Shown here: positions 8,901 to 64,000 of the stretch, piece after piece
Position numbering within the stretch: the first letter of the stretch is position 1
How the letters are laid out: each line of letters opens with the position of its first letter
Assembly: GCA_934162535.1 (NCBI GenBank)
Contig: CAKPJC010000001.1
Coordinates: 15,577-79,576, forward strand
Direction: 5' to 3'
DNA from: an uncultured Clostridia bacterium
GTDB lineage: Bacteria; Bacillota; Clostridia; TANB77; CAG-508
Length of the DNA: 64,000 nucleotides
Program-made: the position numbers and the translations under genes
Notes under the pieces: model-generated
What the model saw: only the letters and a program-made list of their open reading frames with translations
The model's database searches: none
Told to the model about the DNA's origin: nothing

Positions 8901-11900
8901 GTATATATAGGTGGAAATGCACAAATAGGGGATGAAACACTTGTAGGATATGTAACAGACAATAACACATCAAATGATGACCAAGGAAAATTATATCTAG
9001 TAGAAGCAGGATGCGTTTTAGGAGCAGGAAACGGAAGTAACCCTAATTATACAGCTGGTCAAGTAGACAATTCACATATTATAATTGCAGATGAAGCACA
9101 TATACTAAACAGTGTATATGGTGGTGGAAACTACGGAATAGTAGGTAATAGAAATGGAACAACAGCAAAAGCAACAATAGACATTTTAGGTGGAACGGTT
9201 GATAGAAATGTATATGGGGGCTCAAATAATAGTAGCATATTTGGTTCAACAACAGTAAATGTAAAGGGAGGACATGTTAAAGGGGCTGTATATGGTGGAA
9301 CAAACACATCAGGTACTGTAAGTTCAACAGCTACAGTAAATGTAACTGGTGGAATATTAGGAAATGACACAAATGCAGAAGATAATGAGGCATTATTTGG
9401 TGGAGGATATGGTCAAAGTACAACAGTTTCAGGAAAAGCAACAGTGAATATATTAGACACGTCTTCAAATGTATATATATATGGTAGTGCATATGGAGGA
9501 AGCTCACTTGGTAGAATGAACTCAAATGTTGAAGTAAACATTCAAGATATACCAGGAAACTCAAATATAATATCAATTGTAGGTTCTGTATTTGCAGGAG
9601 GAAAAGGAACAACAACAACATCTGCTACAATTGCAGGAAGTGCAACATTAAATATAGATGGAAGCAATTTACCAGATTGTAGTGTATTTGGTGGAAATGA
9701 TATAAATGGTACAACATCAGGTGCAATAACAGTTAATGTTGGTAGAACATATGAATCAAAACTAAAAAATGCATATGGTGGAGGAAATAAAGCAGGAATA
9801 ACAACAACAACTCCAAGTGTAAGAGTGTATTTACTAGCAAATTCAAATGTAACAAATGCATTTAATGGTGGTAGAGCTGCAAACCTAACATCATCAGGAA
9901 CATCTGATGCAACAAGAGCAATTTACTTACAAGGAGGAAAGGCTAAAAATATATTTGGTGGATCAGACTCATCAGGAACAGTTACAGCAAGTCATGTATA
10001 TATAGAATCAGGTACAGCAGAAAATGTATATGGTGGAAACAATATTGGAGGAACAACAAATACAACATATGTATATGTTACAGGAGGAACAGTAACAAAT
10101 ACATATGGAGGAGGTTACCAAGCGTCAACACCAGCAACAAATGTTAGCCTAACAGGAGGAACAGTAACAAACGGATTTGGTGGAGGAAATGCAGCAGATG
10201 TAACCAATACATCAATATCACTTGCTGGAAGTACTGCAACAAATATATATGGTGGCTCAAATGAAAAAGGCACAGTTTCAAGTACATATGTAACCATAAA
10301 TTCTGGAACAGTAACAAACGTATATGGAGGAAACAACGCAGGTGGAAAATCAGTAAATACAGAAGTAATAGTTAATTCTTCTACAGAAAATGTATATGGA
10401 GGAGGAAATGAGGCTATAACATCTGGAGACACACTTGTAACATTACATAATGCAACAATTACAGGAAGTGCATTTGGAGGAGGAAATGGTGCTGCAGCTA
10501 TAGTTTTAGGAAATAGTGTAATTACAGCCGATGGAACAACAAACATAGCACATGACCTATTTGGTGGAGGAAATGCAGCAGCAACAGGTTCATCATCAAA
10601 AACATCAAAAGTTACAGTTGACATATCAGGAGGAACAATAAGAGGAGATGTTTATGGAGCAGCAAACACATCAGTTGTTACAGGTGAAACACATGTTAAT
10701 ATAGGAACAACAGTTGTTTCAACAACAGGACTAACACAAGGAACAATAGATATTGCAGGAACAGTATTTGGTGGAGGAAAATCAAATACAGCTGGTTCAG
10801 AAGACTACGACTTCTCATTTGAGAGTGTTATAGGAAATACATATATAGACATAAATGCAGAAAATTATGACAATGGAACATATACATATAATATAAGAAA
10901 AAGTATATTTGGAGCAGGAAATGCTGCAACAATGTCAGGAGATGGATACATAAATATAACTAATTACGGAAAAGCTAGTGATATAAAACAAAACATATCA
11001 ATACAAAGAGCAACGACAGTTACAATAGACAATAGTGTAATGTATCTTGAAGGAACAACAGATAGGACAAACGAAATATCGACAGCTGTATATACATTAA
11101 ACAGAATAAAAGATTTAAAAGTAAAAAATAATACAACATTATATTTAGCAAGTGGTGCTAATATACTTGAAAAACTTACAAGTATAGACTCATCAGAATC
11201 AAAAGCAACAGTAACAATTGGTCCAAATGGAGTATTATCAAGAAATGTAGATAATAGAATTTACTTATTACAAGGAAAGAACTTAATTTTAAAAACAGAA
11301 GCTGGTGCACATGGTGAAGTATATGGAATGACATATGTAGGTTTATTCAAAGGAATACTTAATAGAGATACAGGAATATATGGAACAAACTATAATCATG
11401 GAGACACAGTTCCAGCAGATTATGAAGAATTTGCAAGAAATTCATATGTTCAAGGTAAACACTATGATGGGCATGATATAAAAATAGATGGTTTCTATAC
11501 AAACTATGAGGAAGATGGAGTCATTGCAACAAAATATATAGAACCAACACCAGAATCAGCACCATATTATCAATGGATATTAGGTAAAGTTTCAGATGAT
11601 ATATATTATGATGAAATAGAATTAATTGCAACAAAATATGCAACGACATCAACATATGTATTGGACTTAACAGGACTTGATTTCCCAAATATGACAGTAA
11701 ATGTTATAGGATTTGATACATCAGAATTAAGAAATGATGTAATATTAAAAGACAATAGTGAAATACCTAATATTGAAATGGATGCAACAAAAGCAAATAC
11801 AACATTTGGATTAACAATGACAGCAGGAAATACAGGATGGCAAACAAAAGGAACAACAGCATATTACACATCATCAGATAATCAAAATAATGGTACATTT

Positions 11901-13517
11901 AGTGGAACAGAACAATACTTAAGTGATAACTCAACAACAACACCATCATTCAGTTTCTACATGGGTCACTCAAAGAATGTAAGTACAAATGAGGTACTTG
12001 GTTCAGTAACAATACATTTACAAGTATCATATGTATCAGGAGATGAACTTATATTAAGAAATGTATATATACCATTAAGATTATCAACAAACAATACATT
12101 CAAATTAGCAACAGACTTCTATGAAGGAGCTATAACACCAGGTAAAAAATATAGCATGTTCCCAACAACAAATACAAGTATAACAAGTAACAGCTCATTC
12201 TCAGCATATTACTCATTATACTTAGGTGGATACTCACAAGACCAAGAATATTATGATAATTTTGTAGGATATAATCATTATCTTGTATCAAGCTGTGTAT
12301 TACCTGCAAAAACCAAAATAACATTTGTTGATAGGTCAAAAGATGAAATAAAATACTATTATTATATAGTAACAGACCAGGATGAACAAAACGCTAGAAA
12401 AGAATACAAATTCCAAGACTTTACTGCAATGGGAAGTACTGATGAAGGAACAGGAAGGACGGCTGAAAAATACAATAATGACTCAAGTTATTTGAATACA
12501 ACATTAGATATAGTATTAGAGGAATTTATATTCCAAGTGGACTTTGCAGATATTACATTAGCAAATACATTTGCAAATCAGTCACTAACGGTTCAATTAA
12601 GAGATATGTGGGATGATAGCGTTAAATTAAAAGTTAATACAGACCAATATCCAATGCTATTTAACTTATATAGTGACAAAGAAGCTATAAAGAGTGTAGA
12701 TGTAAATTCAAATAAAACATATATTTATATGGGAAATGAATTTAAAGTGGATTTAAAAACAGTATATGAATTCCAAACAGAAAATGCAGATACTGTATAT
12801 GATACAACACACTTTGAAGATCAGCTTGGTGTAAAAATAACTGTATTAGAAGGTAGTACACAATTATCATCAACAGACTTAACAGGTATATATGTAGAGT
12901 ATAATGGAAAAAGATATTATGCAAGAACTGATGGTTCATACAGAATAAAAATAGCAGATGCTGTTTCAAATGTATTAACTGACATGGTATTCTATACAGA
13001 AAATGGTAAACTAGATACGGCAACATATACATTCAAATTTGAGACATTTGGCTCAATAGATGGAGTATATTTCTCTAGCGCAATTGCAACAGATAGTATA
13101 AATATGCAAATAATAAATGCAGATTATGGTTTATCAGCTATATTAGATGATAAATCGGTACTAATAGACAAAGCAACAGGAATAACAAAAAATAATGATA
13201 ATGCTTTAGATTTTACAATAGGATATTCAGCAGAATTTACAAATCCTAAAATATGTGTATCATTATATAGAAGAGATTATTCAAGCATATATAGTTCAAA
13301 ATATAATTTAATAGACTTAGCAAATTATGTTTCAAATACTCTAACACCAACGGCTGTTGAAAAAGAATATTTGGTAACAGATAATCCACAAGCTACACAA
13401 AATTTTGTATTAAGACTAAAAGATAATCTTACAACGGGAACATATAAAATTGTATTCTCACTATATGATGGAGAAAATTACATAGGAAATATAGACAAAA
13501 TGATTATCATTAAATAA
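5904..13517 (+). CDS. giant (2537-aa) secreted or surface protein with an N-terminal signal anchor, a central tract of about 700 aa of about 22-residue beta-helix-type repeats (..V.GG.V.NVYGGxN..) and no LPXTG motif; putative adhesin or matrix fibre protein
   Basis: Uninterrupted 7.6-kb ORF with an SD (AGGAGG) before the ATG and an N-terminal hydrophobic segment. Dozens of degenerate YGG[GSN]N / FGGGN repeat units occur between about aa 980 and 1700. The C-terminus ends ...DKMIIIK with no sortase signal. Confidence 0.8.
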   Translation: MKYFEKYQKRKFHKKIVNTAFLLIFSIIAITSYYTANFSKAKDIIEVNVNIKDTIISESIEKCKVNATEGIDGESFYVKLPKYINNKKVIKYSYSTENAGVSTDTEQTAENEVEKAVKAEQNVPLNQIGPNDILPESKIYLTSTEVKKQELTILAHYDIREQNGKNLYNQYIEDTKDNNKITVSGYMPENAKLIIQEVDKKEAQTTIRQQSQRPIILAVAYDIKIQCGEDIYEPYEFDQNINVKIEKEDLKEKETNVWHIDDKNKVEKLEQKPETNDIEFVTNGFSIFGLEDVEATELALDGMADSILTIDDAESDKYYWQGQNYTEDTTGENKNIYTEYANVTVNYHGYGLNEVEPEKIGYVSLTEKYNIVTYKKTAPIVSGNISIELVDNPFIDRPTGYGFGGWTSPDGIISTDTKTKTQTITATGSKNVTLNIYANWKTATVVYLNSDGGNDNLNDGLSPETPFGSWSRAYEYLYNNSQDRTDRENNIIVLTGNIDSTMHGSRTVTGSQTMLADVTYESSTTFTSGEKYILATGTGEGSNALAGINGSIENATLSTTEKPPAGAEWIIQQSGNGYTIKNNDNWQYLHHSRYSGLYFSDSSFTWTYDINNRRFYYQTTGWRRTTYYLRYNNGTWTTTTNANSAQSFYFLKCKVENERPGPIVNTKSDNIGSNNNYTSSRNVASTITSLYGHVDYRDNAIMDLTQNNYRHIYAYADLQIEYLNINATGYTRACGTDGISISTRYPVFYGRAHNFRIGRGIKQAGTSNDASTAGAVIGGFESGTTVGSTYNSNNAYKLVIESGKYSSILAWNMRDETASYYGTVNWTLGNDIDRVLKENSQLKSYFRNTVNAGGGVNGRANVRDKAYLINVKSGTFGVDAVTDGYGDAYTSGIYMGGYGTGSSSGTRDISDRYMIVEGGLIYNINCGLKVDSGKTDILTKLYVKGGEIYNIVGGAGLSTTYGSRIQQITGGKIRYSVSGGSNGYSGSDGDGQISNCNTLVYIGGNAQIGDETLVGYVTDNNTSNDDQGKLYLVEAGCVLGAGNGSNPNYTAGQVDNSHIIIADEAHILNSVYGGGNYGIVGNRNGTTAKATIDILGGTVDRNVYGGSNNSSIFGSTTVNVKGGHVKGAVYGGTNTSGTVSSTATVNVTGGILGNDTNAEDNEALFGGGYGQSTTVSGKATVNILDTSSNVYIYGSAYGGSSLGRMNSNVEVNIQDIPGNSNIISIVGSVFAGGKGTTTTSATIAGSATLNIDGSNLPDCSVFGGNDINGTTSGAITVNVGRTYESKLKNAYGGGNKAGITTTTPSVRVYLLANSNVTNAFNGGRAANLTSSGTSDATRAIYLQGGKAKNIFGGSDSSGTVTASHVYIESGTAENVYGGNNIGGTTNTTYVYVTGGTVTNTYGGGYQASTPATNVSLTGGTVTNGFGGGNAADVTNTSISLAGSTATNIYGGSNEKGTVSSTYVTINSGTVTNVYGGNNAGGKSVNTEVIVNSSTENVYGGGNEAITSGDTLVTLHNATITGSAFGGGNGAAAIVLGNSVITADGTTNIAHDLFGGGNAAATGSSSKTSKVTVDISGGTIRGDVYGAANTSVVTGETHVNIGTTVVSTTGLTQGTIDIAGTVFGGGKSNTAGSEDYDFSFESVIGNTYIDINAENYDNGTYTYNIRKSIFGAGNAATMSGDGYINITNYGKASDIKQNISIQRATTVTIDNSVMYLEGTTDRTNEISTAVYTLNRIKDLKVKNNTTLYLASGANILEKLTSIDSSESKATVTIGPNGVLSRNVDNRIYLLQGKNLILKTEAGAHGEVYGMTYVGLFKGILNRDTGIYGTNYNHGDTVPADYEEFARNSYVQGKHYDGHDIKIDGFYTNYEEDGVIATKYIEPTPESAPYYQWILGKVSDDIYYDEIELIATKYATTSTYVLDLTGLDFPNMTVNVIGFDTSELRNDVILKDNSEIPNIEMDATKANTTFGLTMTAGNTGWQTKGTTAYYTSSDNQNNGTFSGTEQYLSDNSTTTPSFSFYMGHSKNVSTNEVLGSVTIHLQVSYVSGDELILRNVYIPLRLSTNNTFKLATDFYEGAITPGKKYSMFPTTNTSITSNSSFSAYYSLYLGGYSQDQEYYDNFVGYNHYLVSSCVLPAKTKITFVDRSKDEIKYYYYIVTDQDEQNARKEYKFQDFTAMGSTDEGTGRTAEKYNNDSSYLNTTLDIVLEEFIFQVDFADITLANTFANQSLTVQLRDMWDDSVKLKVNTDQYPMLFNLYSDKEAIKSVDVNSNKTYIYMGNEFKVDLKTVYEFQTENADTVYDTTHFEDQLGVKITVLEGSTQLSSTDLTGIYVEYNGKRYYARTDGSYRIKIADAVSNVLTDMVFYTENGKLDTATYTFKFETFGSIDGVYFSSAIATDSINMQIINADYGLSAILDDKSVLIDKATGITKNNDNALDFTIGYSAEFTNPKICVSLYRRDYSSIYSSKYNLIDLANYVSNTLTPTAVEKEYLVTDNPQATQNFVLRLKDNLTTGTYKIVFSLYDGENYIGNIDKMIIIK

Positions 13518-13610
13518 GATAAAACGCAGTTTCTATGTAGAAACATTATACCAATAGAAAGTTCGAGAAAAAATCCTATTGGATAAAATGATTAGTTGAA
13601 AGGGGTATTT

Positions 13611-15089
13611 ATGAAAAAATCAAACAAAACAATAATAATAGTAATTTCAATTGTTTTAGTAATAATGTTAATTGTTGGGGGGGTTGCATATGCATATATA
13701 GCAACAGACTTATTTAAAAGTAATAAAGAAATGTTTTTTAAATATTTTTCACAAGTTACAGATAAAGATACAGGAATAATTAACAAAAATCTAAATGATT
13801 ATTTTACTAAAAAAAGTAGTGAATCATATCAAAATAGAGGAAATATAAAATTTAACTATTCAGATAATACAGGTACAAATATGATGGATTCAAAAATATC
13901 TGACAAATTAAATGAATTATCAATTGAATTTGATGGAATATCAAACAAAGAAAAAAATATTACAAATAGAAATATTACAATTAATTATGGAAATGATGTA
14001 ACATTTCCAATTAAATATATAAAAGATCAAGAACTACATGGTGTACAATCTAAATATATAGGAAGTAAATATGTTTCTATTAGGAACAGTAATTTGCAAC
14101 AATTGGCTTCTAAACTTGGAATGGATACAACATTTATTCCTAATAAAATAGAGATTTCAGAAAAAAAGGAAAAAATAAAATTTACTGAAGAGGAATTAGC
14201 AAAAATAAAAAGCACATATGGTCCAATTATTGAGCAGGGGCTAACAGATGATAATTTTTCAAAGGAAGCAAATAATAAAGGAGAAAGCAATTATATATTA
14301 GCAGTTTCTGGAGACCAATTAAAAAATATAATGATAAACTTATTAGAGGCATTTAAACAAGATAAAGATTTAATAAAAAGATTAAATGAAAATATTAATT
14401 TAACTGAAATAAATACATCAAAACAAATAACGCAACAACAAATAAGCGAGATATTAAAAGAATTACAAGAAAAAGATTCATCAGAATTTAAAGAATTGAA
14501 AATTATGATTGGCTATTCAAAAAAATCTGTAAATGAAATTATGATACAATATGACCAAATAGTAATAAATATGAAAAAAGAAAAAAATAGTAATAGTGAA
14601 AAATATTCAGTAAATTTACAGATAAATAATAATGAGGAACAGGAAGATGTAAAAGACATTAGTACTGTAAGAATTGATTTTGAAGCAAATTATAATGGAT
14701 TAGATGAGTTAAAAGATGTTTCGGGAGAATATATGATAAAAATAAAAGCTATAACAAATGATAATACAGATTTACAATATCAGTATAATATAACAAATGA
14801 GGTACAATTTAATGATTCTATAGATGTTGTAAAACTTGATAATAGAAATACTTTTATTTTAAATGATGTTGAAGATAATGTACTTACCAGCTTTTTAACA
14901 AAAGCGAGCGAAAGAATTCAAACAGTAAATAAAGAACAAATGCAACAATTAGGATTAGAAGAAGATGAAAATCCATTATTATATACAAATTTTATTACTT
15001 ATTATTATGTTGAAACAATAAAATCAGTACAGTCAATTTATGAGAATTCAGTGAAACCATATGAAATGAATAGTAAAGGTAACGAATAA
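13611..15089 (+). CDS. membrane-anchored (N-terminal TM) extracytoplasmic protein of unknown function, last gene of the giant-protein operon
   Basis: The SD GAAAGGGG lies 5 nt before ATG 13611; the track start at 13596 overlaps the SD. No terminator separates it from the giant gene. A strong terminator follows. Confidence 0.65.
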   Translation: MKKSNKTIIIVISIVLVIMLIVGGVAYAYIATDLFKSNKEMFFKYFSQVTDKDTGIINKNLNDYFTKKSSESYQNRGNIKFNYSDNTGTNMMDSKISDKLNELSIEFDGISNKEKNITNRNITINYGNDVTFPIKYIKDQELHGVQSKYIGSKYVSIRNSNLQQLASKLGMDTTFIPNKIEISEKKEKIKFTEEELAKIKSTYGPIIEQGLTDDNFSKEANNKGESNYILAVSGDQLKNIMINLLEAFKQDKDLIKRLNENINLTEINTSKQITQQQISEILKELQEKDSSEFKELKIMIGYSKKSVNEIMIQYDQIVINMKKEKNSNSEKYSVNLQINNNEEQEDVKDISTVRIDFEANYNGLDELKDVSGEYMIKIKAITNDNTDLQYQYNITNEVQFNDSIDVVKLDNRNTFILNDVEDNVLTSFLTKASERIQTVNKEQMQQLGLEEDENPLLYTNFITYYYVETIKSVQSIYENSVKPYEMNSKGNE

Positions 15090-54235: not shown

Positions 54236-54278
54236 CGAAATAAAGTAAAAAAACGAAAATTTTTGGGAGGTGTTTTAT

Positions 54279-54788
54279 ATAAAACAAGAATTACCAATAA
54301 ATGGTCAAATAAGAGCAAAGGAAGTTCAATTAATCAGTGATGAGGGAGAAAAATTAGGAATAGTTCCAATAAGCAAAGCACTAGACCTAGCTATGGAAAA
54401 AAAACTAGACTTAGTATTAGTTGCTCCAAATGCACAAGTACCTGTATGTAAGATAATGAACTATGGCAAATACAAATTTGAGCAATCAAAAAAAGAAAAA
54501 GAAGCCAAAAAGAAACAAAAAGTTCAAGAAACAAAGGAAATACGAATAACTCCAAACATTGAAGAACATGACTTTGGATTCAAATCAAGAAATGCAAGAA
54601 AATTTCTAGAAGATGGCAATAAAGTAAAAATAACAGTAAGATTTAGAGGAAGAGAGTTAAATAACACAAAAATGGGTGAAGCAGTACTAAATAAATTTAT
54701 TAGCACATTGGAAGATGTTTCAAATGTAGAAAAAAAGCCAAAACTAGAAGGTAAAAATATGTTTATTATACTAGCTAAAAAAGCTTAA
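54279..54788 (+). CDS. infC: translation initiation factor IF-3, initiating at ATA 54279
   Basis: IKQELPINGQIRAKEVQLISDEGEKLGIV... matches IF-3. The GGGAGG SD (54265-54270) lies 8 nt before the in-frame ATA. The track's GTG at 54270 overlaps the SD. Confidence 0.9.
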   Translation: MKQELPINGQIRAKEVQLISDEGEKLGIVPISKALDLAMEKKLDLVLVAPNAQVPVCKIMNYGKYKFEQSKKEKEAKKKQKVQETKEIRITPNIEEHDFGFKSRNARKFLEDGNKVKITVRFRGRELNNTKMGEAVLNKFISTLEDVSNVEKKPKLEGKNMFIILAKKA

Positions 54789-54825
54789 TAATATATAAAT
54801 AAAACAATTGAAAGGAGCGATAAGC

Positions 54826-55029
54826 ATGCCAAAACTAAAAACAAACAAAGCTGCAAAAAAGAGATATTCTTTAACAGCTAAAGGAAAAGTAAAAAGAACA
54901 ACAGCTAACAGAAGACACTTATTAGCAAATAAAACAAAAAGACAAAAATTATCAGCAAGACGCCCAGGAGCATATGCAGATAAATCTTGTGAAAATACAA
55001 TAAAGAAATTATTACCATATGGTAACTAG
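54826..55029 (+). CDS. rpmI: 50S ribosomal protein L35
   Basis: MPKLKTNKAAKKRY... with an AAAGGAG SD 8 nt upstream; the track start at 54808 precedes the SD. Confidence 0.9.
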   Translation: MPKLKTNKAAKKRYSLTAKGKVKRTTANRRHLLANKTKRQKLSARRPGAYADKSCENTIKKLLPYGN

Positions 55030-55054
55030 AAAATAGATTGAGGAGGGAAAAGAA

Positions 55055-55405
55055 ATGGCAAGAGTAAAATCAGCAATGACAACAAGAGCAAGACATAAAA
55101 AAGTATTAAAACAAGCAAAAGGATATTATGGAGCAAAACATTATAGATTTAGAAATGCAAACCAAGCAGTATTAAAATCATTAGCTTATTCATATGTTGG
55201 AAGAAAAGATAGAAAAAGTAATTTCAGAAAACTATGGATAGCAAGAATAAATGCTGGAGCAAGAATGAATGGAACAACATACAGCAAATTAATCGCAGGA
55301 CTAAAAAAAGCTAATGTAACAATAAACAGAAAAATGTTAGCTGAAATAGCTGTGACAGATCCAAAAGCATTTACAGAAATAGTAGAAATAGCAAAAAAAG
55401 CATAG
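55055..55405 (+). CDS. rplT: 50S ribosomal protein L20
   Basis: [28 protein letters not shown]..., 116 aa. Confidence 0.95.
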
Positions 55406-55414
55406 GAAATAGGG

Positions 55415-55456
55415 AGACATTATTTTGAATTAAATTCAATATAATGCCTTTTTTTT
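55415..55456. terminator. bidirectional terminator between rplT(+) and spoVAE(-): long imperfect hairpin followed by T8
   Basis: CATTATTTTGAATT-AA-ATTCAATATAATG (14-bp stem, 1 mismatch) followed by CCTTTTTTTT. Confidence 0.6.
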
Positions 55457-55841
55457 ACTCTTTTTTCATTTTAGGCTTAGAAATCAATGAAGCAATATAT
55501 CCAAAGAAGATTGCAGAAGCAATACCACCAGCAGAAGCAGTAATACCACCTGTAAATGCACCAATTATGCCACTCTCATGAACACCCTTGATTGCACCTT
55601 TAGCTAGATTATAACCAAAACCTGTAAGGGGAACAGTTGCACCAGCACCAGCAAAATCAACTAAACATTGATAAAGACCTAGTCCACCTAATATTGCACC
55701 AGTTGTAACATAAATGACTAAAATTCTAGCAGGAGTTAATTTAGTTTTATCAATCAATATTTGACCAATAACACACAATAAACCACCAACAATAAAACAC
55801 TTTAATAGAGAAAACCAATTAATACAATTTAAAAAATCCAT
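55455..55841 (-). CDS. spoVAE: stage V sporulation protein AE (SpoVAEb-type)
   Basis: Small four-TM protein with the FIVGGLLCVIGQ block and a Gly-rich C-terminus, following spoVAD and spoVAC in conserved order. Confidence 0.8.
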   Translation of the reverse strand: MDFLNCINWFSLLKCFIVGGLLCVIGQILIDKTKLTPARILVIYVTTGAILGGLGLYQCLVDFAGAGATVPLTGFGYNLAKGAIKGVHESGIIGAFTGGITASAGGIASAIFFGYIASLISKPKMKKE

Positions 55842-55850
55842 ATAAACCTC

Positions 55851-56852
55851 CTACATCTCTATACTAACTGCATGTGCAATTCCAGGAATAGACTCTCCTT
55901 GTTGTGAGGAAGTTGAATTAGTCAATGCACCTGTTGCAATTAATAATAATCTATTAATCTTCTTTTGTTTTAATTGTTTGAAAAAATACCCGGAGAAAAC
56001 AGTTGCACAACAAGCACATCCACTTCCACCAGAATGAGTATCTTGTTTTTCTTTATCAAAAATCAAAACACCACAATCATTATAATTTGATTTAATATTG
56101 TAACCTTTGGTAAGAGCAAGTTCTGTCAGAATATCTTTACCAACATGACCGAGGTCTCCTGTGATAATTGCATCATAATAAGAAGGAGAACGACCAGTAT
56201 CTTTAAAATGACAAATAAGAGTATCTAATGCAGAAACAGCCATTGCAGCACCCATATTATTTGCATCTTTTATTCCCATATCAACAATTTTTCCTGTTGT
56301 AGCATGTGTAATAAAAGGACCAGAACCAGACTTAGATAAAATTGCAGCACCTGCACCAGTAACTGTCCATTGAGAAGTGGGAGGACGTTGATTTCCTAAT
56401 TCTAAAGGGAACCTAAACTGTTTTTCAGCACTACAAAAATGACTAGAAGAAGCACATAATACATGTTCGGCACATGCTTCTGTGAGAATAGCTCCAAGGC
56501 TTAATCCTTCAACAAATGTTGAACATGCACCAAATATACCAAAAAGAGGGATATTTAGTTCTCTTAATCCAAAACTTGATGAAATACACTGATTTAATAA
56601 ATCACCTGCAAAACAATATTCTATACTAGAAGAAGGAATCCCCGATTTAGATATAGCAGTATTAACTGTTTCTTTTATAATTTTACTTTCGGATTTTTCC
56701 CAAGTTTTTTCTCCCCAAAATTCATCATCTAAACATTTGTCAAAATATTTTGCTAATGGACCTTCAGATTCTTTGGGACCGACAATAGAAGCAACATCTG
56801 TTATACAAGGTGGAATATCAAATTTTATAGATTGTTTTCCTAACTTTTGCAT
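55851..56852 (-). CDS. spoVAD: stage V sporulation protein AD (thiolase-fold)
   Basis: About 333 aa with GACSTFVEG active-site-like Cys context and a Gly-rich C-terminus. ATG at 56852 with an AGAAAGG SD 9 nt upstream. Confidence 0.85.
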   Translation of the reverse strand: MQKLGKQSIKFDIPPCITDVASIVGPKESEGPLAKYFDKCLDDEFWGEKTWEKSESKIIKETVNTAISKSGIPSSSIEYCFAGDLLNQCISSSFGLRELNIPLFGIFGACSTFVEGLSLGAILTEACAEHVLCASSSHFCSAEKQFRFPLELGNQRPPTSQWTVTGAGAAILSKSGSGPFITHATTGKIVDMGIKDANNMGAAMAVSALDTLICHFKDTGRSPSYYDAIITGDLGHVGKDILTELALTKGYNIKSNYNDCGVLIFDKEKQDTHSGGSGCACCATVFSGYFFKQLKQKKINRLLLIATGALTNSTSSQQGESIPGIAHAVSIEM

Positions 56853-56880
56853 AAAAATCATCCTTTCTGTAAAAATTAAA

Positions 56881-57345
56881 TTAAACTAAAGTTATGCATT
56901 GAGTGTTAAAAATAAGATAAACAAGTCCTACAATTATTGAAGCAGAAATACCGAAAACAAGAACAGGACCTGCAACTGTAAACATTTTTGCACCTACACC
57001 CATAACATATCCTTCAGACTTATATTCCATTGCTGGAGAAACAATAGAATTTGCAAAACCAGTAATAGGAATTAATGAACCTGCACCAGCAAATTTTCCT
57101 ATTTTATTAAAAATATTTAACCCTGTTAAAAATGCACTAATGCCAATTAAAATAATAGAAACAATAGTACCAGATAATTCAGTTGAAAAGCTTTTTGACT
57201 TACAAATATCAAGAATAATCTGCCCAACAGAACAAATTAAACCACCAACCCAAAAAGCATTAAAACAATTTTTAAGAATAGGAGAATTAGGTGACTTTTT
57301 ATCAACATAATTTTGATAATCTTTTTTAGAATCTAATGGATTCAT
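56881..57345 (-). CDS. spoVAC: stage V sporulation protein AC
   Basis: About 154 aa with four TM segments, the AFWVGGLICSVGQ block and an AAGGAGGT SD. Confidence 0.85.
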   Translation of the reverse strand: MNPLDSKKDYQNYVDKKSPNSPILKNCFNAFWVGGLICSVGQIILDICKSKSFSTELSGTIVSIILIGISAFLTGLNIFNKIGKFAGAGSLIPITGFANSIVSPAMEYKSEGYVMGVGAKMFTVAGPVLVFGISASIIVGLVYLIFNTQCITLV

Positions 57346-57561: not shown

Positions 57562-59181
57562 ATGCCAAGTTATTTAGGAATGTATATTGAAGACAATTTA
57601 ATAAAATATGCCAAAGTATCAAAAGAAAAAGAAAAAGTAAAAATAGATTCTTTTGGTATTAAATTCTATTCAAATATATCACAAGCGGTAAAACAAATAA
57701 TAGAAGAAACATACAGTTTCAAAACCCCGATAAGTGTGAATTTGACTGAGGAAACATACCAATATTTTAATATGTTTTCTTTATTAAATAAAAAAGACTT
57801 AGAAAAAGCAATAAAACTTGAGTTTGAATCTTATTGTACAGATAAGGGCTATAATTCAAACTCTTTAGAAACTAGATATGCTATAGTAAATAATGCAGAA
57901 GATAAAGAAAAATTAAAAGTAATTAATATAAGTGATAACAAAATAGAATTAAACAAAGTGCAACAAAAATTAGATGGATATAGAATTGGAACAATTGCAC
58001 CAGTTGCAATGACAATTCCAAACTTAACAAGTCCTGAAAAAAAGGAAAATTCACTAATAGTTAATATTGAAGAAAAAACGACAATTACAACTGTAATAAA
58101 CGGAAATGTATATGAAGTTGAAACACTAGATGAAGGAAGTAAACAAATACTTGAAAAAATAAATTTAAAGGAAAATTCATATTCGAAAGCATATGAAATA
58201 TGTCAAAACACAACAATATATACAGCAGATGTACAAGACTTTGTGGAAGAACAAAGCAGGTATTTAGAAGACATAATGCCAACACTATATAATATAGTAG
58301 GAAGAGTACAAAAAATAATAAATGAGAGTGTAGAAAAAATTGGAAAAGTATATATTACAGGAACTTTGTCATGTGTTAATAATATTGACTTATATTTTCA
58401 AGAATATTTGGGAAAAGTAAAATGTGAAATACTTAAACCATATTTTGTACAAAATATTATAAAAGATGTTAATATAAAAGAATATGTTGAAGTAAACTCT
58501 GCTATATCATTAGCATTACAAGGGCTAGGAGAAGGAATAAGTGGAATAAACTTCAAAAAGAAAACATTTAATGATAGTTTTTGGAATATCACAATAGGTG
58601 GAAAGGATAAAGATAGTTCAAAAAATAGTAAGATTTTTGGGGACTTTAATCTAAATGATTTTACAGAAAAATTATCAAAAACTGAAGTTGGAATTATAAG
58701 AAGCCTAGTATCATTATTAATATTTATAATAATATATAGTGCATTTTCAGTTTTGCTAACAAAGCAAATTGATAAAAAAGAAATAGAGGTTGACAGTATA
58801 ACAACCAAAATAAATGCTCAAATATCAAGAGTAAAAACAGACACAACAGCATTAAACTCAAAAACGACACAATATACTACACTAATATCAGATTTACAAG
58901 CCGTAAATGAAAAAATAAGTGATATGAATGCTAGTAAAAACTTAATACCAAACTTATTAAACCAAATAATGAGTGCTATAGATGAGACAGTACAAATCAC
59001 ATCTATAGAAAATACAACAGGAAGGCATATTGTAATAGTTGCTCAGTCATCAAAATATCCAGGACTAGGATATTTCAAGACAAGATTAAAAACTAAAAAC
59101 ATACTTCAAAATGTTGTTTCAGGAAGTAGTGTAAAACAAAATGGAGTAATAACTGTTACGATTGAAGGTGATTTGCCATGA
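57562..59181 (+). CDS. pilM: type IV pilus assembly protein, fused PilM (actin-like ATPase fold) and PilN-like (TM plus periplasmic domain)
   Basis: N-terminal PilM-like block (LGMYIEDNLIKYAKV...), a TM segment near aa 385-410, then a coiled PilN-like region. It sits at the head of a pilus cluster containing pilD and pilB. Confidence 0.7.
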   Translation: MPSYLGMYIEDNLIKYAKVSKEKEKVKIDSFGIKFYSNISQAVKQIIEETYSFKTPISVNLTEETYQYFNMFSLLNKKDLEKAIKLEFESYCTDKGYNSNSLETRYAIVNNAEDKEKLKVINISDNKIELNKVQQKLDGYRIGTIAPVAMTIPNLTSPEKKENSLIVNIEEKTTITTVINGNVYEVETLDEGSKQILEKINLKENSYSKAYEICQNTTIYTADVQDFVEEQSRYLEDIMPTLYNIVGRVQKIINESVEKIGKVYITGTLSCVNNIDLYFQEYLGKVKCEILKPYFVQNIIKDVNIKEYVEVNSAISLALQGLGEGISGINFKKKTFNDSFWNITIGGKDKDSSKNSKIFGDFNLNDFTEKLSKTEVGIIRSLVSLLIFIIIYSAFSVLLTKQIDKKEIEVDSITTKINAQISRVKTDTTALNSKTTQYTTLISDLQAVNEKISDMNASKNLIPNLLNQIMSAIDETVQITSIENTTGRHIVIVAQSSKYPGLGYFKTRLKTKNILQNVVSGSSVKQNGVITVTIEGDLP

Positions 59182-60038
59182 GAAAAATATTATTAGGATT
59201 AGTATCAGTTATGCTATTTGCACTTTCAGTATATACAGCAATATATGGATTCTCAATTGGGTCACTGGAAGTGAAAAGTATACCAGCAATAAAAGAAGAA
59301 AACATGAGATTGGATAACAAAATACAAACAGCATCAAATTTAAGAACAAAAGATTATCCACAAAATGTAACATTACTTGAGAGTGCATATAAAAAACTAA
59401 TGTCAGAAAAAGAAAGCTATGAACAACTATTAAAATTAGGTGTTGATGAAAATGGGTTACCATTAAATAAAATTCAAGAATATGAAATGGAAAAAATATG
59501 GGTTGCAATGGGTAATTATGCACAAAAAGAAGGTGTAGACCTAAAAATGGATATTACATCAAATAACTCAGTAAGTAAAACATATGATTTGAAGTTTACA
59601 GCAACAGGAGGATATATTCAAATTACAGACTTTTTATATGATGTAGAAAGAGACACAACACTTGTATTTAAAATCGAAAACTTCAAAATGGTTCCAGGGG
59701 AAAACACTGACAATCTATCAGCAACATTTACATGTAAGGATATTAAATTAAATATCGCTGATGCGCTTGGAAGTAGTAGAAACAACAGTGATTCAGAAGA
59801 TAAAAAAGAAGATAGCACAACAGATAACAAATCACAAACAACAAATGATACAAATACAAATGCTAATACAAGTTCAAGCTCAGCAAAAAGTTCAAATGCA
59901 AATTCAAGTACAAGTACAGGAACAAACACAACATCATCAAGTTCAAGTACTAACAAAAGTGTAAATACAAGCACAAATACTAGTACAAACACATCAAGCA
60001 GTAACACAAGTACAAGTACTAATACAAACAGAAATTAG
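59178..60038 (+). CDS. PilO-like pilus assembly protein with a C-terminal Ser/Thr/Asn-rich low-complexity tail
   Basis: N-terminal TM, a coiled segment and a PilO-like core. The last about 90 aa are almost entirely S, T and N. The start ATGA overlaps the pilM/N stop. Confidence 0.55.
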   Translation: MRKILLGLVSVMLFALSVYTAIYGFSIGSLEVKSIPAIKEENMRLDNKIQTASNLRTKDYPQNVTLLESAYKKLMSEKESYEQLLKLGVDENGLPLNKIQEYEMEKIWVAMGNYAQKEGVDLKMDITSNNSVSKTYDLKFTATGGYIQITDFLYDVERDTTLVFKIENFKMVPGENTDNLSATFTCKDIKLNIADALGSSRNNSDSEDKKEDSTTDNKSQTTNDTNTNANTSSSSAKSSNANSSTSTGTNTTSSSSSTNKSVNTSTNTSTNTSSSNTSTSTNTNRN

Positions 60039-60052
60039 AAAGGAGTGTAATT

Positions 60053-60514
60053 ATGACAAAAACAATTATTAGAGAAGCAATTATAGCACTTTTAGTATGT
60101 TTAGCAGTACTATTAATATTAAGTGTAGCGTTATATAACTACATTCCTACAAACAAGGTCGTACCTGAAACTGTTGAATATTCACCAACAAAAGAGATAC
60201 AATCACAATTAAATTCAGCAGTTGACGATAACTCAAGTGAGATATTAATGACATATGAAATAACAGCACAAGACCTTGATAATTTTGAAAGGACAAATCA
60301 ATACAATCCAGGAAAAGCAAATCCATTTGCACCAGAAAAACAAGAAGAAAATAACAACAATGGAAACAGTAGTAATGGAAATAGCAATTCTGGAAATTCA
60401 AATAATTCTGGAAGTACAGGAAATAACAGCAGTGGAAGTACTAGAGGAACACCTGTAACACCAGCAAATGGTAGTTCAGAGGGCAAACTATTTGAAGGAG
60501 GATCTTCCAAATAA
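60053..60514 (+). CDS. membrane-anchored pilus-associated protein with an Asn/Ser/Gly-rich C-terminal tail
   Basis: N-terminal TM followed by a short domain and a low-complexity tail (NNNNGNSSNGNSNSGNSNNSGSTGNNSSG). Confidence 0.5.
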   Translation: MTKTIIREAIIALLVCLAVLLILSVALYNYIPTNKVVPETVEYSPTKEIQSQLNSAVDDNSSEILMTYEITAQDLDNFERTNQYNPGKANPFAPEKQEENNNNGNSSNGNSNSGNSNNSGSTGNNSSGSTRGTPVTPANGSSEGKLFEGGSSK

Positions 60515-60684: not shown

Positions 60685-61230
60685 ATGAGAAACCAAAAAG
60701 GTATCACATTAGTAGCTTTAGTAGTTACAATAGTAGTTTTATTAATTTTAGCAGGAACATCAATTGCAATGTTAAAAGGAGATAATGGTATAGTAACAAA
60801 TGCTCAAAAAGCAACAGTATCAAATAAAGAAGGACAAGTTGTAGAAAATATAAAAAATGCATATAACACAGTAAAAACAAAAGTTATAGTTGGAGCATCA
60901 ACAAATCCTAATTATGATGCACAAGCTGCTGCAACAGAACAAGAAATTGCAAATACAATTGCTACAGAAATATTAGGTGAAGAAACAACGCTAACAGCAG
61001 GAACAGCAAAAGACAAAGATGGATATAAAATAACATATAATGCAACAGCAGGTTCAACAGCAGGTTCAACAGCAGGAACAATAGTTATTGAATATGGAGA
61101 TTCAACTTTTAAAAATGGTGTAACATTTGCTGGAAAACAAATGGGTACAATACAAGCAACAATAACAATTGAAAAAGCTAATGCTTCATTAAGTTGGACA
61201 GGGGGTCCATATTTCATAAATAATAGATAA
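60685..61230 (+). CDS. type IV (pseudo)pilin-like protein with a class III-type signal (MRNQKG|ITLVALVVTIVVLLILAG...) lacking Glu+5
   Basis: KG followed by the hydrophobic ITLVA..., a 181-aa size, a strong GGAG SD and a very stable terminator. Position +5 is Ala instead of the canonical Glu. Confidence 0.55.
   Translation: MRNQKGITLVALVVTIVVLLILAGTSIAMLKGDNGIVTNAQKATVSNKEGQVVENIKNAYNTVKTKVIVGASTNPNYDAQAAATEQEIANTIATEILGEETTLTAGTAKDKDGYKITYNATAGSTAGSTAGTIVIEYGDSTFKNGVTFAGKQMGTIQATITIEKANASLSWTGGPYFINNR
61046..61078 (+). repeat. in-frame 12-bp tandem repeat (ACAGCAGGTTCA x2.75) encoding (AGST)n within the pilin-like gene
   Basis: Two perfect copies at 61046-61057 and 61058-61069, plus a partial copy at 61070-61078. 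Confidence 0.8.
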
Positions 61231-61257
61231 GATACAGATATTAATAAAAACTACACA

Positions 61258-61285
61258 ACAGGCATATACAAAAGTATATGCCTGT
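61258..61285 (+). terminator. strong hairpin terminator after the pilin-like gene (ACAGGCATATAC-AAAA-GTATATGCCTGT)
   Basis: Perfect 12-bp stem with a 4-nt loop; there is no long T-run, so termination may be partial. Confidence 0.5.
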
Positions 61286-61318
61286 ACTAATATAAAAACA
61301 CAAAAGAAAGGCAAGGAA

Positions 61319-62125
61319 ATGAACACATATTTTTATATAATATTATTTATAATGGGAACACTATTTGGAAGTTTTTACACATTAGCAATGTACAGAATAC
61401 CAAGAAATATAGATATAATAAAAAAACATTCTTATTGTCCTAATTGTAATCACAAATTAGGCTTCTTTGAACTGATACCGGTACTAAGTTATATATTTCT
61501 AGGAGGAAAATGCAAAGAATGTAAACAAAAAATAAGAATAAGATACTTATTACTAGAAATACTTGGGGGAATATCATTTGTAGTATTAGCAATAGCACTA
61601 AAAATAAATATATATACAATAAACATTCCAATAGCAATAATATATGGGATAACAATATTATATATTACTGCAATAATACTTATAGCCGGAATAGATAAAG
61701 AATATAGAAAAATAGATAAAAGAGTACTTGCATATGGAATAATCATATCACTAATATATATGATATATCTATATACAGTAGGAGAAACTAGTATATATAG
61801 ATATGCTATATATCTAGCAATATATATAATTTTATTATGTATAGATGCATTTTTACTAAGGAAAAAAGCAGAAGATAGCTACACAATAGATATATTGTTT
61901 TTTCTAACAATAATACTTATAGTAACAGACTTCAAAATATTTATTATGACTGTAATTATGACAATAATGGCAATAGCAATATATATGTTAATAAGAAGAA
62001 TTGAACTTAAGAAAAAAGGAAATATAAAACCAAAACTAAAAGAAGTACCAATAGGTTTCTATATAGGAGTTAGCAACATTGTAGTACTATTTGGTATGAC
62101 GATATTAACGAATTATATGATTTGA
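61319..62125 (+). CDS. pilD: prepilin peptidase (A24 family, PilD/ComC-like) with an N-terminal zinc-binding CxxC...CxxC motif
   Basis: CPNCNHKL...CKECKQKI tetra-Cys, a polytopic membrane domain and a catalytic Asp context (IAGIDKEY). Confidence 0.85.
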   Translation: MNTYFYIILFIMGTLFGSFYTLAMYRIPRNIDIIKKHSYCPNCNHKLGFFELIPVLSYIFLGGKCKECKQKIRIRYLLLEILGGISFVVLAIALKINIYTINIPIAIIYGITILYITAIILIAGIDKEYRKIDKRVLAYGIIISLIYMIYLYTVGETSIYRYAIYLAIYIILLCIDAFLLRKKAEDSYTIDILFFLTIILIVTDFKIFIMTVIMTIMAIAIYMLIRRIELKKKGNIKPKLKEVPIGFYIGVSNIVVLFGMTILTNYMI

Positions 62126-62145
62126 AGCAAACAAGGGGGCTAACA

Positions 62146-62574
62146 ATGAAATCAGAGAAAGGTGTAACATTAACATCAGTAATGGTATATATAATAGCAC
62201 TAACAGTTGTAGTTATAACAGTGGGAAGGATTATGACATATTTTTATAAAAACGTAAACAATGTAACAGAAGATACAAACTCAAGTGGTGCGTATATAAG
62301 TTTCAATAGCTATTTTACAGAAGAAATAAATATTGAAGGAAATGATGTTGAAGAATGTGCTACAGATTCAACAACAGGAGAAAGCTATATTATATTTAGT
62401 AAAACAGGAAATCAATACACATATAAAGATAAAAACATATATAAAGAAAAAGTAAAAATAGCCAAAAATATTAATGAGTGTGAAATTTCCTATAATGAAA
62501 CAACAAAAGTAATTCAAGTAAATATGAAAATAAAAGGAAAAACATACAGCAATTACTATACAGTAGCAAAATAA
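62146..62574 (+). CDS. second prepilin-like protein (MKSEKG|VTLTSVMVYIIALTVVVITVG...), also lacking Glu+5
   Basis: The AAGGGGG SD lies 5 nt before ATG 62146; the track start at 62122 lacks an SD. KG is followed by a hydrophobic helix. About 142 aa. Confidence 0.5.
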   Translation: MKSEKGVTLTSVMVYIIALTVVVITVGRIMTYFYKNVNNVTEDTNSSGAYISFNSYFTEEINIEGNDVEECATDSTTGESYIIFSKTGNQYTYKDKNIYKEKVKIAKNINECEISYNETTKVIQVNMKIKGKTYSNYYTVAK

Positions 62575-62593: not shown

Positions 62594-64000
62594 ATGGATA
62601 TGAGAAAACGTCAACCGATAGGAATTGAGCTTGTAAAAAGAGGAATAGTAGATAAAAACGATATAGAAGAGGCATTAAAGGAACAACGCAAAAATCCAAA
62701 TAAAAAACTTGGAGAATTATTATATGAATTAAAAGTATGTGATGCACCAACACTTATTAGTGCGATAGGAGATATAATAGGGGTACCAGGAATTATATTA
62801 TCAGAAGAGCTAATAAGAATAGATGTATTAGAATATATTTCACTTGAAATTGCAAGAAGAAATAAAGCTATACCATTTGCAATAGAAAATGGTAAAATAA
62901 AAGTATGCTTTGCAGATACAACAAATGCAAGAAATATTGAATCAGTAAGATTATTAATGTTAAACAAGGGACTTGTAATAGAACCATATATAACATTTGA
63001 AGGTATAATAACAAATATAGTCACAAGACTTGGAGGAACAGCAGAAAAAGACATGGCAAATATTGGACAAGACAATAATATTACAGAAATTGTAGATTCA
63101 ATAATAAAAACTGCAATGGAAAAAAGAGCAAGCGATATTCATATAGAACCATTAAGAAATGAAGTAAGAGTAAGGTACAGAATAGATGGTGAATTATTTA
63201 CAGCAACATCATTACCAAAAGACAAACAAGCTCAAATAATAGGAAGACTGAAAGCAATATCAAACATGCACCAAGAGAAACAAGAATCACAAGATGGTAG
63301 AATATTAATATATGAAGATTATAATATTCGTGTATCTTCACAAAAAAATGTTTATGGAGAAAAATTTGTTCTAAGACTACTAAAGAAAAATTCAAATATA
63401 AAAAATATATTTGAATTAGGATATCCAGGATCAGAAACACAACTTGAAAAAAGTATAAATAAAAGAAATAGTATAACAGTAATTGCTGCTCCAACTGGAG
63501 AAGGTAAAACAACAACACTATATAGTTTTATAGATTATCTAAACAGACCAGAAATAAATATAACAACAATAGAAGATCCTGTAGAAATACGTATAGATGG
63601 ATTAAATCAAATAGAAATAGATGCAAGAACAAGTTTCTCAGATTCATTAAGAACCGTATTAAGACAAGACCCTGATATAATATTAGTAGGAGAAATAAGA
63701 GACAAAGAAACAGGAGAAATAGCTATACAGGCAGGGCAAACAGGACATTATGTATTATCAACAATCCATACAATAGATGCAGTAGAAGTAATAACAAGAC
63801 TAAGAAAAATGGGATTACTAGACTATGATATAGCAAGTACGCTTGCAACAAGTATATCACAAAGGCTTGTTAGAAAATTATGTCCAAAATGTAGAAAAGA
63901 AAGAGATTTCACAACAGATGAAATAGAAAAAATAAATGCAATAGGAAAAAGATATAATGTACAATTTGACTTAAAAGGCAAAAAAACATATGATGCAATA
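62594..64000 (+). CDS. pilB: type IV pilus assembly ATPase PilB (GspE family), 3' partial at the window edge
   Basis: Not in the ORF track because it runs off the window. SD GGAGGAAAAG before ATG 62594. Walker A AAPTGEGKTTTL, DPVE, the His box TGHYVLSTIHT and the tetra-Cys CPKCRK. The frame is open to nt 64000. Confidence 0.88.
   Translation, partial: MDMRKRQPIGIELVKRGIVDKNDIEEALKEQRKNPNKKLGELLYELKVCDAPTLISAIGDIIGVPGIILSEELIRIDVLEYISLEIARRNKAIPFAIENGKIKVCFADTTNARNIESVRLLMLNKGLVIEPYITFEGIITNIVTRLGGTAEKDMANIGQDNNITEIVDSIIKTAMEKRASDIHIEPLRNEVRVRYRIDGELFTATSLPKDKQAQIIGRLKAISNMHQEKQESQDGRILIYEDYNIRVSSQKNVYGEKFVLRLLKKNSNIKNIFELGYPGSETQLEKSINKRNSITVIAAPTGEGKTTTLYSFIDYLNRPEINITTIEDPVEIRIDGLNQIEIDARTSFSDSLRTVLRQDPDIILVGEIRDKETGEIAIQAGQTGHYVLSTIHTIDAVEVITRLRKMGLLDYDIASTLATSISQRLVRKLCPKCRKERDFTTDEIEKINAIGKRYNVQFDLKGKKTYDAI

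Follow-up and report, generated by a model that had tools for sequence, protein, structure and literature searches.

Can a bacterial type IV pilus be built from subunits that lack the glutamate at position 5 of the mature protein (Glu5)? The question is raised by a gene cluster at the end of a 64,000-nucleotide stretch of DNA (the window; contig CAKPJC010000001.1, positions 15,577 to 79,576) from an uncultured Clostridia bacterium, which encodes two pilin-like proteins, pilin1 and pilin2, both without this residue. Glu5 'almost invariably' breaks the hydrophobic stretch of bacterial pilins and is often missing in archaea (PMC4471445), and its salt bridge with the N-terminus of a neighbouring subunit neutralises charge in the filament core (PMC10191384). 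The cluster was analysed together with related loci, and we read it, with a probability of roughly 0.55, as encoding a Glu5-independent bacterial type IVa-like pilus, with pilin1 as the presumed major subunit, pilin2 as a minor one and many modular pilins that would share the first helix (alpha1) of pilin1. We infer cleavage after Gly6, polymerisation, the major and minor roles and adhesion from genes, motifs, conservation, synteny and predicted folds.

The pilin1 gene (60685 to 61230, + strand like all features of the cluster; 181 amino acids, aa) is preceded by a strong Shine-Dalgarno site (AAAGGAGAG) and starts with MRNQKG↓ITLVA, with Ala at +5, the arrow marking the predicted cleavage site. 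The mature protein would begin ITLVALVVTIVVLLILAGTSIAML, and a longer stretch of the same N-terminus reads ITLVALVVTIVVLLILAGTSIAMLKGDNG. Pilin2 (62146 to 62574; 142 aa) starts with MKSEKG↓VTLTS, with Ser at +5 and a mature N-terminus of VTLTSVMVYIIALTVVVITVG. Its true start is the ATG at 62146, which has AAGGGGG upstream and is the choice of the gene callers on all related contigs; the TTG at 62122 given in the list of open reading frames (ORFs) is wrong. Both proteins carry a class III leader, short, basic and ending in Gly, which is invariant in their homologues, and the hydrophobic stretch of each contains no Asp or Glu at all. An earlier note on this DNA, made from the letters alone, had claimed that both prepilin candidates lack Glu+5, and this was borne out. 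The absence is not a matter of chance, because Ala+5 and Ser+5 are kept across the respective families of homologues.

The pilin1 family is large, with 1361 homologues at E<=1e-3. Among the best 120 of these, 119 have Ala at +5 and one has Ser, and the consensus KG(I/V)TL(I/V)ALVVTIVVLLILAGTSIAMLxGDNGIITNAQ is nearly invariant. Pilin1 itself matches the Pfam N_methyl model PF07963 at 23.3 bits (cut-off 21.2), TIGR02532 was matched by neither pilin1 nor pilin2, and no NCBIfam model scored above threshold for pilin1. Across species, residues 1 to 40 of pilin1 are nearly invariant, whereas the head is about 45% identical, and no part of any cluster pilin is more conserved than alpha1. A similar division was seen at short range, in six strains with 100% identical PilD-like proteins: pilin1 identity among them is 87-93%, with every change past residue 73, while five other proteins of the cluster (the 539-aa, PilO-like and 153-aa proteins, pilin2 and PilB) are all at least 98% identical. 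This pattern is, as far as sequences can tell, what a constrained core with an exposed and diversifying head would give.

At least 528 pilin1-family loci were found when one genome per species was scanned, and 84 of them, numbered here with the prefix L, form the set of loci used below. All of the loci listed lie in assemblies of uncultured gut Clostridia, Clostridium or Eubacteriales (human, rabbit and others), Clostridium sp. CAG:440 among them, and genomes with several loci are common. Of the 84 loci, about 36 repeat the gene order of the window: 539-aa protein, PilO-like protein, 153-aa protein, pilin1, PilD-like protein, pilin2, PilB, PilT and PilC. Across these cluster loci pilin1 is present in one to nine copies, relatives carrying it in two to nine copies in tandem. 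The longest array, in L006 (7080-11678), holds nine paralogues of 177-189 aa, spaced by about 25-35 nucleotides and all with an identical type of N-terminus; it may correspond to a heteropolymeric or phase-variable pilus.

The region between pilin1 and the PilD-like gene contains a stem-loop with a perfect 12-bp stem (61258 to 61285; -18.6 kcal/mol, z = -7.3 against shuffled sequences), which may act on the pilin transcript as an attenuator or as a 3' stabiliser. In 27 of 32 related loci the last pilin1 copy is likewise followed by a hairpin of -17 kcal/mol or better, and in most of the loci that seem to lack one, over-long ORF calls cut the site. The stems found at this position are of two unrelated sequences (ACAGGCATATAC... 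and AGCCATACGCACAC...), and the + strand has no U-tract 3' of the hairpin. Searches of the window and the cluster against Rfam gave no family above threshold, neither a riboswitch nor any other known RNA; a c-di-GMP riboswitch, such as that upstream of pilA1 in Clostridioides difficile, was not evident in the same scan. By inference, the hairpin would set the output of pilin1 above that of the downstream genes.

Structure prediction, which the earlier note had proposed as a check, returned a long N-terminal helix followed by a beta-sheet head for both candidates. The AlphaFold2 model of pilin1, built from the family alignment, has a mean predicted local distance difference test score (pLDDT) of 87.7, with helices at 5-73 and 82-97 and then a beta-sheet, and that of pilin2 has a pLDDT of 84.0, with a helix at 9-61 and then eight strands. 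Foldseek comparison of both models with the PDB gave no match below E = 0.1, a null that does not mean a new fold, as the program copes poorly with a long helix joined to a small head.

The conserved alpha1, the strain-variable head, the tandem amplification and the conserved 3' hairpin are the grounds on which pilin1 appears, from sequence, to fit a subunit of an E5-independent filament with the traits of a major subunit. The suggestion that both candidates might be minor, pseudopilin-like proteins is at odds with these same features for pilin1, and it suits pilin2, which is encoded in the operon in a single copy and lacks Glu5. Ser+5 is kept in nearly all of the 63 homologues of pilin2, whose gene occurs once in every cluster locus, immediately before PilB. 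The protein is moderately conserved over its whole length; its hydrophobic stretch is present, yet it matches no Pfam or NCBIfam model. The known bacterial Glu5-less pilins are minor pilins of the tip, namely the K subunit and Streptococcus sanguinis PilA (PMC10191384, PMC9934059). By analogy, pilin2 would fit these tip or nucleator pilins, and a location at the tip is proposed for it.

Pilins with an acidic +5 were sought with a PilFind-style rule, [GAS]x4[DE] followed by 14 uncharged residues (PMC3244431), applied to the 1.44 Mb made up of the window and the 84 loci. No pilin of the G↓FTLIE type was found there, and the window contained no convincing acidic-+5 pilin. A relaxed six-frame scan of the 64-kb window gave no further class III-like N-terminus. 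When the +5 position was left free in a regular expression, the 84 loci yielded 122 proteins with Ala, 32 with Ser and none with Asp or Glu.

The sole convincing acidic-+5 class III protein in the 1.44 Mb is a third pilin of the relatives, absent from the window. It is a protein of 130-170 aa, encoded in a single copy between PilD and pilin2 in 27 cluster loci (for example L007 11425-11835, L010 9090-9485 and L015 11957-12382, plus 24 others). Its N-terminus, KSEKG↓(F/Y/I)TG(I/V)D(I/V), has Gly at +3 and Asp at +5 (Glu in one locus), and is less conserved than that of pilin1. L006 and L014 are without it, like the window lineage, in which the PilD-like stop at 62125 and the pilin2 start at 62146 leave no space, so that no third pilin gene can lie there; tblastn of the window and its flanks found no remnant of it. 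The window lineage, L006 and L014 have lost the third pilin, and the window operon has no acidic-+5 pilin whatsoever. Consequently, a salt bridge between Glu5 and the N-terminal amine cannot register or neutralise the subunits of this operon.

As PilB (62594 to 64000) is cut by the end of the window, the region beyond was read from contigs with an identical PilD-like protein, which is encoded on many human gut metagenome contigs and in the metagenome-assembled genome GCA_977036495.1. On five of these contigs the gene order is the same as in the window, and pilin2 is followed by PilB (545 aa), PilT (368 aa) and PilC (447 aa), and then, on the 3' side of PilC, by a ROK kinase, a radical-SAM enzyme and other unrelated genes. 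No Glu5 pilin stands after PilB, and the possibility that one might lie just beyond the window, as the major pilin of the same operon, is not borne out.

The extension ATPase PilB matches PF00437 (2.6e-86), TIGR02538 (6.6e-102) and the MshEN domain PF05157 (31 bits). Its N-terminus (62594-62770) also scores 33.9 bits with NF053729, an MshE-related c-di-GMP-binding motif, just below the threshold of 38, and hints at control of assembly by c-di-GMP. PilT scores 318.2 bits with TIGR01420 (cut-off 319.1), and PilC matches the GspF/PilC models. The locus therefore contains PilB-type and PilT-type ATPases and a PilC/GspF platform, the components by which a type IVa machinery is recognised.

The first three genes of the operon are less easily named. 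The 539-aa protein (57562 to 59181), labelled pilM?/N-type, has a cytoplasmic domain, one membrane helix and an external coiled-coil, and is the first gene product in all of the roughly 36 syntenic loci. The PilO-like protein (59178 to 60038; 286 aa), so labelled from its position, and a conserved 153-aa accessory protein (60053 to 60514) are both bitopic and keep their position in every cluster locus; the latter begins with a membrane helix that lacks a Gly cleavage motif. None of the three had a Pfam or NCBIfam match in the window copies. PF05137 (PilN) was matched by 9 of 14 orthologues of the 539-aa protein (best E 2.8e-05), and a profile of that family compared with PDB sequences found no PilM and nothing relevant. 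No PilM or PilO signal could be read from sequence among the window proteins, and the labels PilM and PilO reflect position and architecture alone. Both the PilO-like protein (59700-60038; Ser/Thr/Asn-rich) and the 153-aa protein (60350-60514; Asn/Ser/Gly-rich) end in long low-complexity C-terminal tails rich in Ser, Thr, Asn and Gly, which may be wall-spanning linkers.

The earlier description of the cluster as clearly a Gram-positive type IV pilus locus therefore stands for PilB, PilT and PilC, which are present, and not for the word 'clearly' as applied to pilM/N and pilO, whose window copies match no family. Judged by its gene content, this is a type IV pilus cluster of the Gram-positive kind, with an apparently complete type IVa-like machine.

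The PilD-like protein (61319 to 62125; 268 aa) combines an intact zinc-finger N-domain with a divergent membrane domain. The former, a domain linked to methyltransferase activity, matches PF06750 at 2.9e-29, and its CPxC...KC..C motif does not vary among 21 family members. The peptidase domain PF01478 (Peptidase_A24) gave no match at E<=10 in any of 21 orthologues, and the 120 nearest homologues likewise showed PF06750 only and no PF01478. A library-wide search reached canonical PilD proteins bearing both domains, and hhalign aligned the PilD-like protein with canonical PilD over the full length (probability 100%, E = 3.5e-40); the family profile compared with PDB sequences gave nothing relevant. 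In public annotation pilin1 and pilin2 are unnamed, and one homologue of the PilD-like protein is called 'prepilin peptidase'.

In the hhalign alignment the conserved D126, within GID, is placed opposite the first catalytic Asp. The GxGD region corresponds to 'YTIDI' (188-192), which has lost the glycines and whose register is uncertain by one residue; at the second catalytic position the window copy carries Asp191. Of 186 family members, about 32% have Asp at position 191, about 32% Asn, and the others Ser, Gln, Glu, Gly or Ala. A further residue, Asp176, hardly varies among the 21 cluster orthologues and occurs in 116 of 211 proteins of the wider set. Intermediate relatives combine the GIDKE motif of the family with a normal GxGD. 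The Asp at or next to the canonical site in the window copy and the GxGD kept by the intermediates weaken the view of the PilD-like protein as no more than a dead peptidase.

A standalone canonical A24 prepilin peptidase is encoded in L083 (5487-6239; 250 aa, MGLGDVKL, PF01478 at 61 bits, without a zinc finger). It lies 2 kb upstream of a pair of long Ala+5 proteins, and Xaa-Pro peptidase-like and EF-P-like ORFs stand between. It may be the real processing enzyme of that genome, and a division of labour between two enzymes is a possible lead.

Long Ala+5 proteins are not confined to L083. About 45 of the 84 loci contain lone proteins of 250-657 aa with a pilin1-type N-terminus, distant from pilus genes. 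Long proteins that share the N-terminal 40 residues of pilin1 outside the pilus clusters were found in L083 (8373-9725 and 9995-11248), L012, L014, L016, L021, L034, L042, L048, L049, L058 and L062. Pfam analysis of ten long Ala+5 proteins gave no domain besides coiled-coil noise; the two in L083 contain leucine-rich repeats of the BspA type (LRR_5), and that in L049 has a long coiled-coil. The option that the candidates might be substrates of PilD other than pilins is thereby upheld in part, for these dozens of longer proteins elsewhere in related genomes.

If the cluster does specify a Glu5-independent pilus, the invariant and fully hydrophobic alpha1 of pilin1 would form the filament core and leave the variable head exposed, while pilin2 would act as a low-copy minor pilin, as tip or nucleator. 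Assembly would proceed by hydrophobic packing of alpha1, as in many archaeal type IV filaments, or by some other neutralisation of the N-terminus. The long proteins that share alpha1 would probably be modular pilins of the same filament, displaying adhesive modules. A more far-reaching version, which we put forward tentatively, would be a retractile pilus found clade-wide, with a non-acidic-+5 major pilin and dozens of modular adhesin-pilins per genome that use its invariant alpha1, served by a PilD that has kept its zinc finger without GxGD chemistry, cleavage and modification being either split between two enzymes or carried out by a new catalytic arrangement.

Several points weigh against a pilus without Glu5. 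Glu5 mutants of the bacterial major pilins studied do not homopolymerise (PMC4471445), and one Asp+5 pilin is kept in most related clusters, where an acidic +5 may matter generally. Our view of the genome covers 64 kb plus about 10 kb of flank, and a Glu5 pilin gene may lie elsewhere in it. The likeness of the pilin1 and pilin2 models to the pilin fold is one of overall architecture only. Finally, because the peptidase domain of the PilD-like protein is degenerate, with a second Asp that is not conserved in the family, processing by this operon appears uncertain.

Three other explanations were weighed. That pilin1 and pilin2 are both minor pilins or pseudopilins, with a Glu5 major pilin encoded elsewhere as in some type IV pilus systems with scattered genes, would agree with the partial view of the genome, with the well-known Glu5-less minor pilins of the tip (PMC10191384, PMC9934059), with the co-assembly of Glu5-less mutants with wild-type subunits (PMC4471445) and with the Asp+5 pilin of most related clusters. 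However, neither the window nor the 10 kb downstream nor the 1.44 Mb of related loci yielded a Glu5 pilin; the Asp+5 pilin occurs in one copy, has a less conserved N-terminus and was lost in the window lineage; and the alpha1 conservation, tandem copies, head diversity and hairpin of pilin1 are traits of a major subunit. We consider this explanation unlikely. Rather doubtful, too, is the proposal that the Ala+5 proteins are surface or secreted proteins with class III signals, processed, extracted or displayed by PilB and PilC in the manner of the pseudopilus of a type II secretion system or of an archaeal bindosome. The roughly 45 loci with long proteins distant from pilus genes, some with BspA-type repeats and one with a long coiled-coil, speak for it, and a pilus-dependent secretion route has been proposed in Clostridium perfringens (PMC11580942). 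Against this, the retraction ATPase PilT is present and conserved, a common feature of dynamic pili; in size and predicted shape the short pilin1 proteins resemble ordinary pilins; helix-helix packing in a polymer best accounts for the extreme conservation of the helix across paralogues; and modular pilins are known in true pili, such as PilB and PilC of S. sanguinis (PMC8179133, PMC9934059).

The third explanation would make Glu5 superfluous, because no new N-terminal amine would arise: the N-termini would be uncleaved anchors, the PilD-like protein inactive and the pilins type II membrane proteins. It draws on the lack of a recognisable Peptidase_A24 in the family and on the Asn, Gly, Ser or Gln found at the second Asp position in about two thirds of its members. 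However, (K/R)G↓(I/V)T is invariant over hundreds of proteins, which argues for recognition at that site; D126 and D191, the two Asp candidates, are both retained in the window protein; a separate canonical A24 peptidase is encoded close to two Ala+5 proteins in at least one related genome; and PilB, PilT and PilC would be left without a role. This is, in our judgement, highly improbable, and the Glu5-independent pilus is the reading that we carry into the comparison with known systems.

The closest resemblance is to the type IVa pili of Gram-positive bacteria, such as those with PilA in C. perfringens and C. difficile or with PilE1/E2 and PilA/B/C in S. sanguinis. Shared with these are PilB, PilT, PilC, a PilD-type enzyme and several pilins, PilM/N/O-like accessories, a short basic leader ending in Gly and predicted subunits of a helix plus a beta-sheet, as well as one Glu5-less minor pilin, modular pilins with grafted adhesive domains and a PilB N-terminus of the MshEN family. 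In contrast, the major pilins described in those systems all have Glu5 and usually Phe1, whereas Ile or Val at position 1 and Ala at position 5 are found here; the peptidase domain of the PilD-like protein is unrecognised by Pfam, PilM and PilO are undetected, and the heads have no Foldseek match to solved pilins. Pilin2 resembles the K subunit (GspK/PilK/PilX) and S. sanguinis PilA in being an operon-conserved single-copy protein with a non-acidic +5, and it is missed by PilFind-type rules, as reported for S. sanguinis PilA (PMC9934059). It differs from GspK and PilA in that no sequence or Foldseek similarity to them was found, in its 142 aa compared with the large K subunits, and in having no H-I-J set alongside.

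Archaeal pilins and archaellins share with the present proteins a class III signal with a fully hydrophobic helix, often without Glu5 (PMC4471445), and the existence of many paralogues with one N-terminus. Unlike them, pilin1 matches the bacterial N_methyl model, with no match to any archaeal pilin or flagellin model in Pfam, and the ATPases score far higher on PilB/PilT than on FlaI models. The PilD-like protein has the bacterial zinc-finger N-domain, whereas archaeal FlaK/PibD are without it. A pilus cluster described from TANB77 (Kim et al. 2024, PMC11680825) likewise comes from uncultured low-GC gut Clostridia, whose host group may be identical or related to that of the window, and contains unannotated pilin-like proteins; that cluster is Tad-like, with CpaF/TadA-TadBC and other genes, whereas the one in the window is of the PilB/PilT/PilC type. 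The literature search found no description of the N-terminal peptide GITLIALV (or variants), or of a Glu5-less major pilin family in Clostridia; for Glu5-less major pilins its only yield was S. sanguinis PilA, a minor pilin, and general reviews.

If a pilus of this kind exists, it would be the first demonstrated case of a bacterial type IV filament assembling without the salt bridge from Glu5 to the N-terminus, and a natural, widespread Glu5-free system with which to ask whether that bridge is essential or one solution among others. It would bear on the models of subunit docking and charge neutralisation that are built on Glu5, and would connect bacterial pili with the Glu5-less filaments of archaea. 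As PilFind requires Asp or Glu at +5, it cannot flag proteins with Ala or Ser there; pilin1 also drew no NCBIfam model above threshold, and hundreds of surface proteins of human gut Clostridia that are common yet uncultured are therefore left unannotated. The members with BspA repeats may shape attachment to the host or to food particles. That the trait is family-wide is new here, and the third pilin of the relatives and the degenerate peptidase domain of the PilD-like protein go beyond the earlier note.

The surroundings of the operon were also inspected. An infC-rpmI-rplT group and an opposite-strand spoVAC/spoVAD/spoVAE(B) set directly precede it (55455-57345, - strand; 54270-55405), so that the host is probably a spore-former. 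The GC content of the window is about 28%. Further upstream, an ORF of 2537 aa (5904-13517) probably encodes a giant surface protein. Its product abounds in Thr, Gly, Asn and Ser, has a signal-anchor at the N-terminus and matched nothing in Pfam at E<=1e-5. The next gene, at 13596-15089, encodes a DUF6583 protein.

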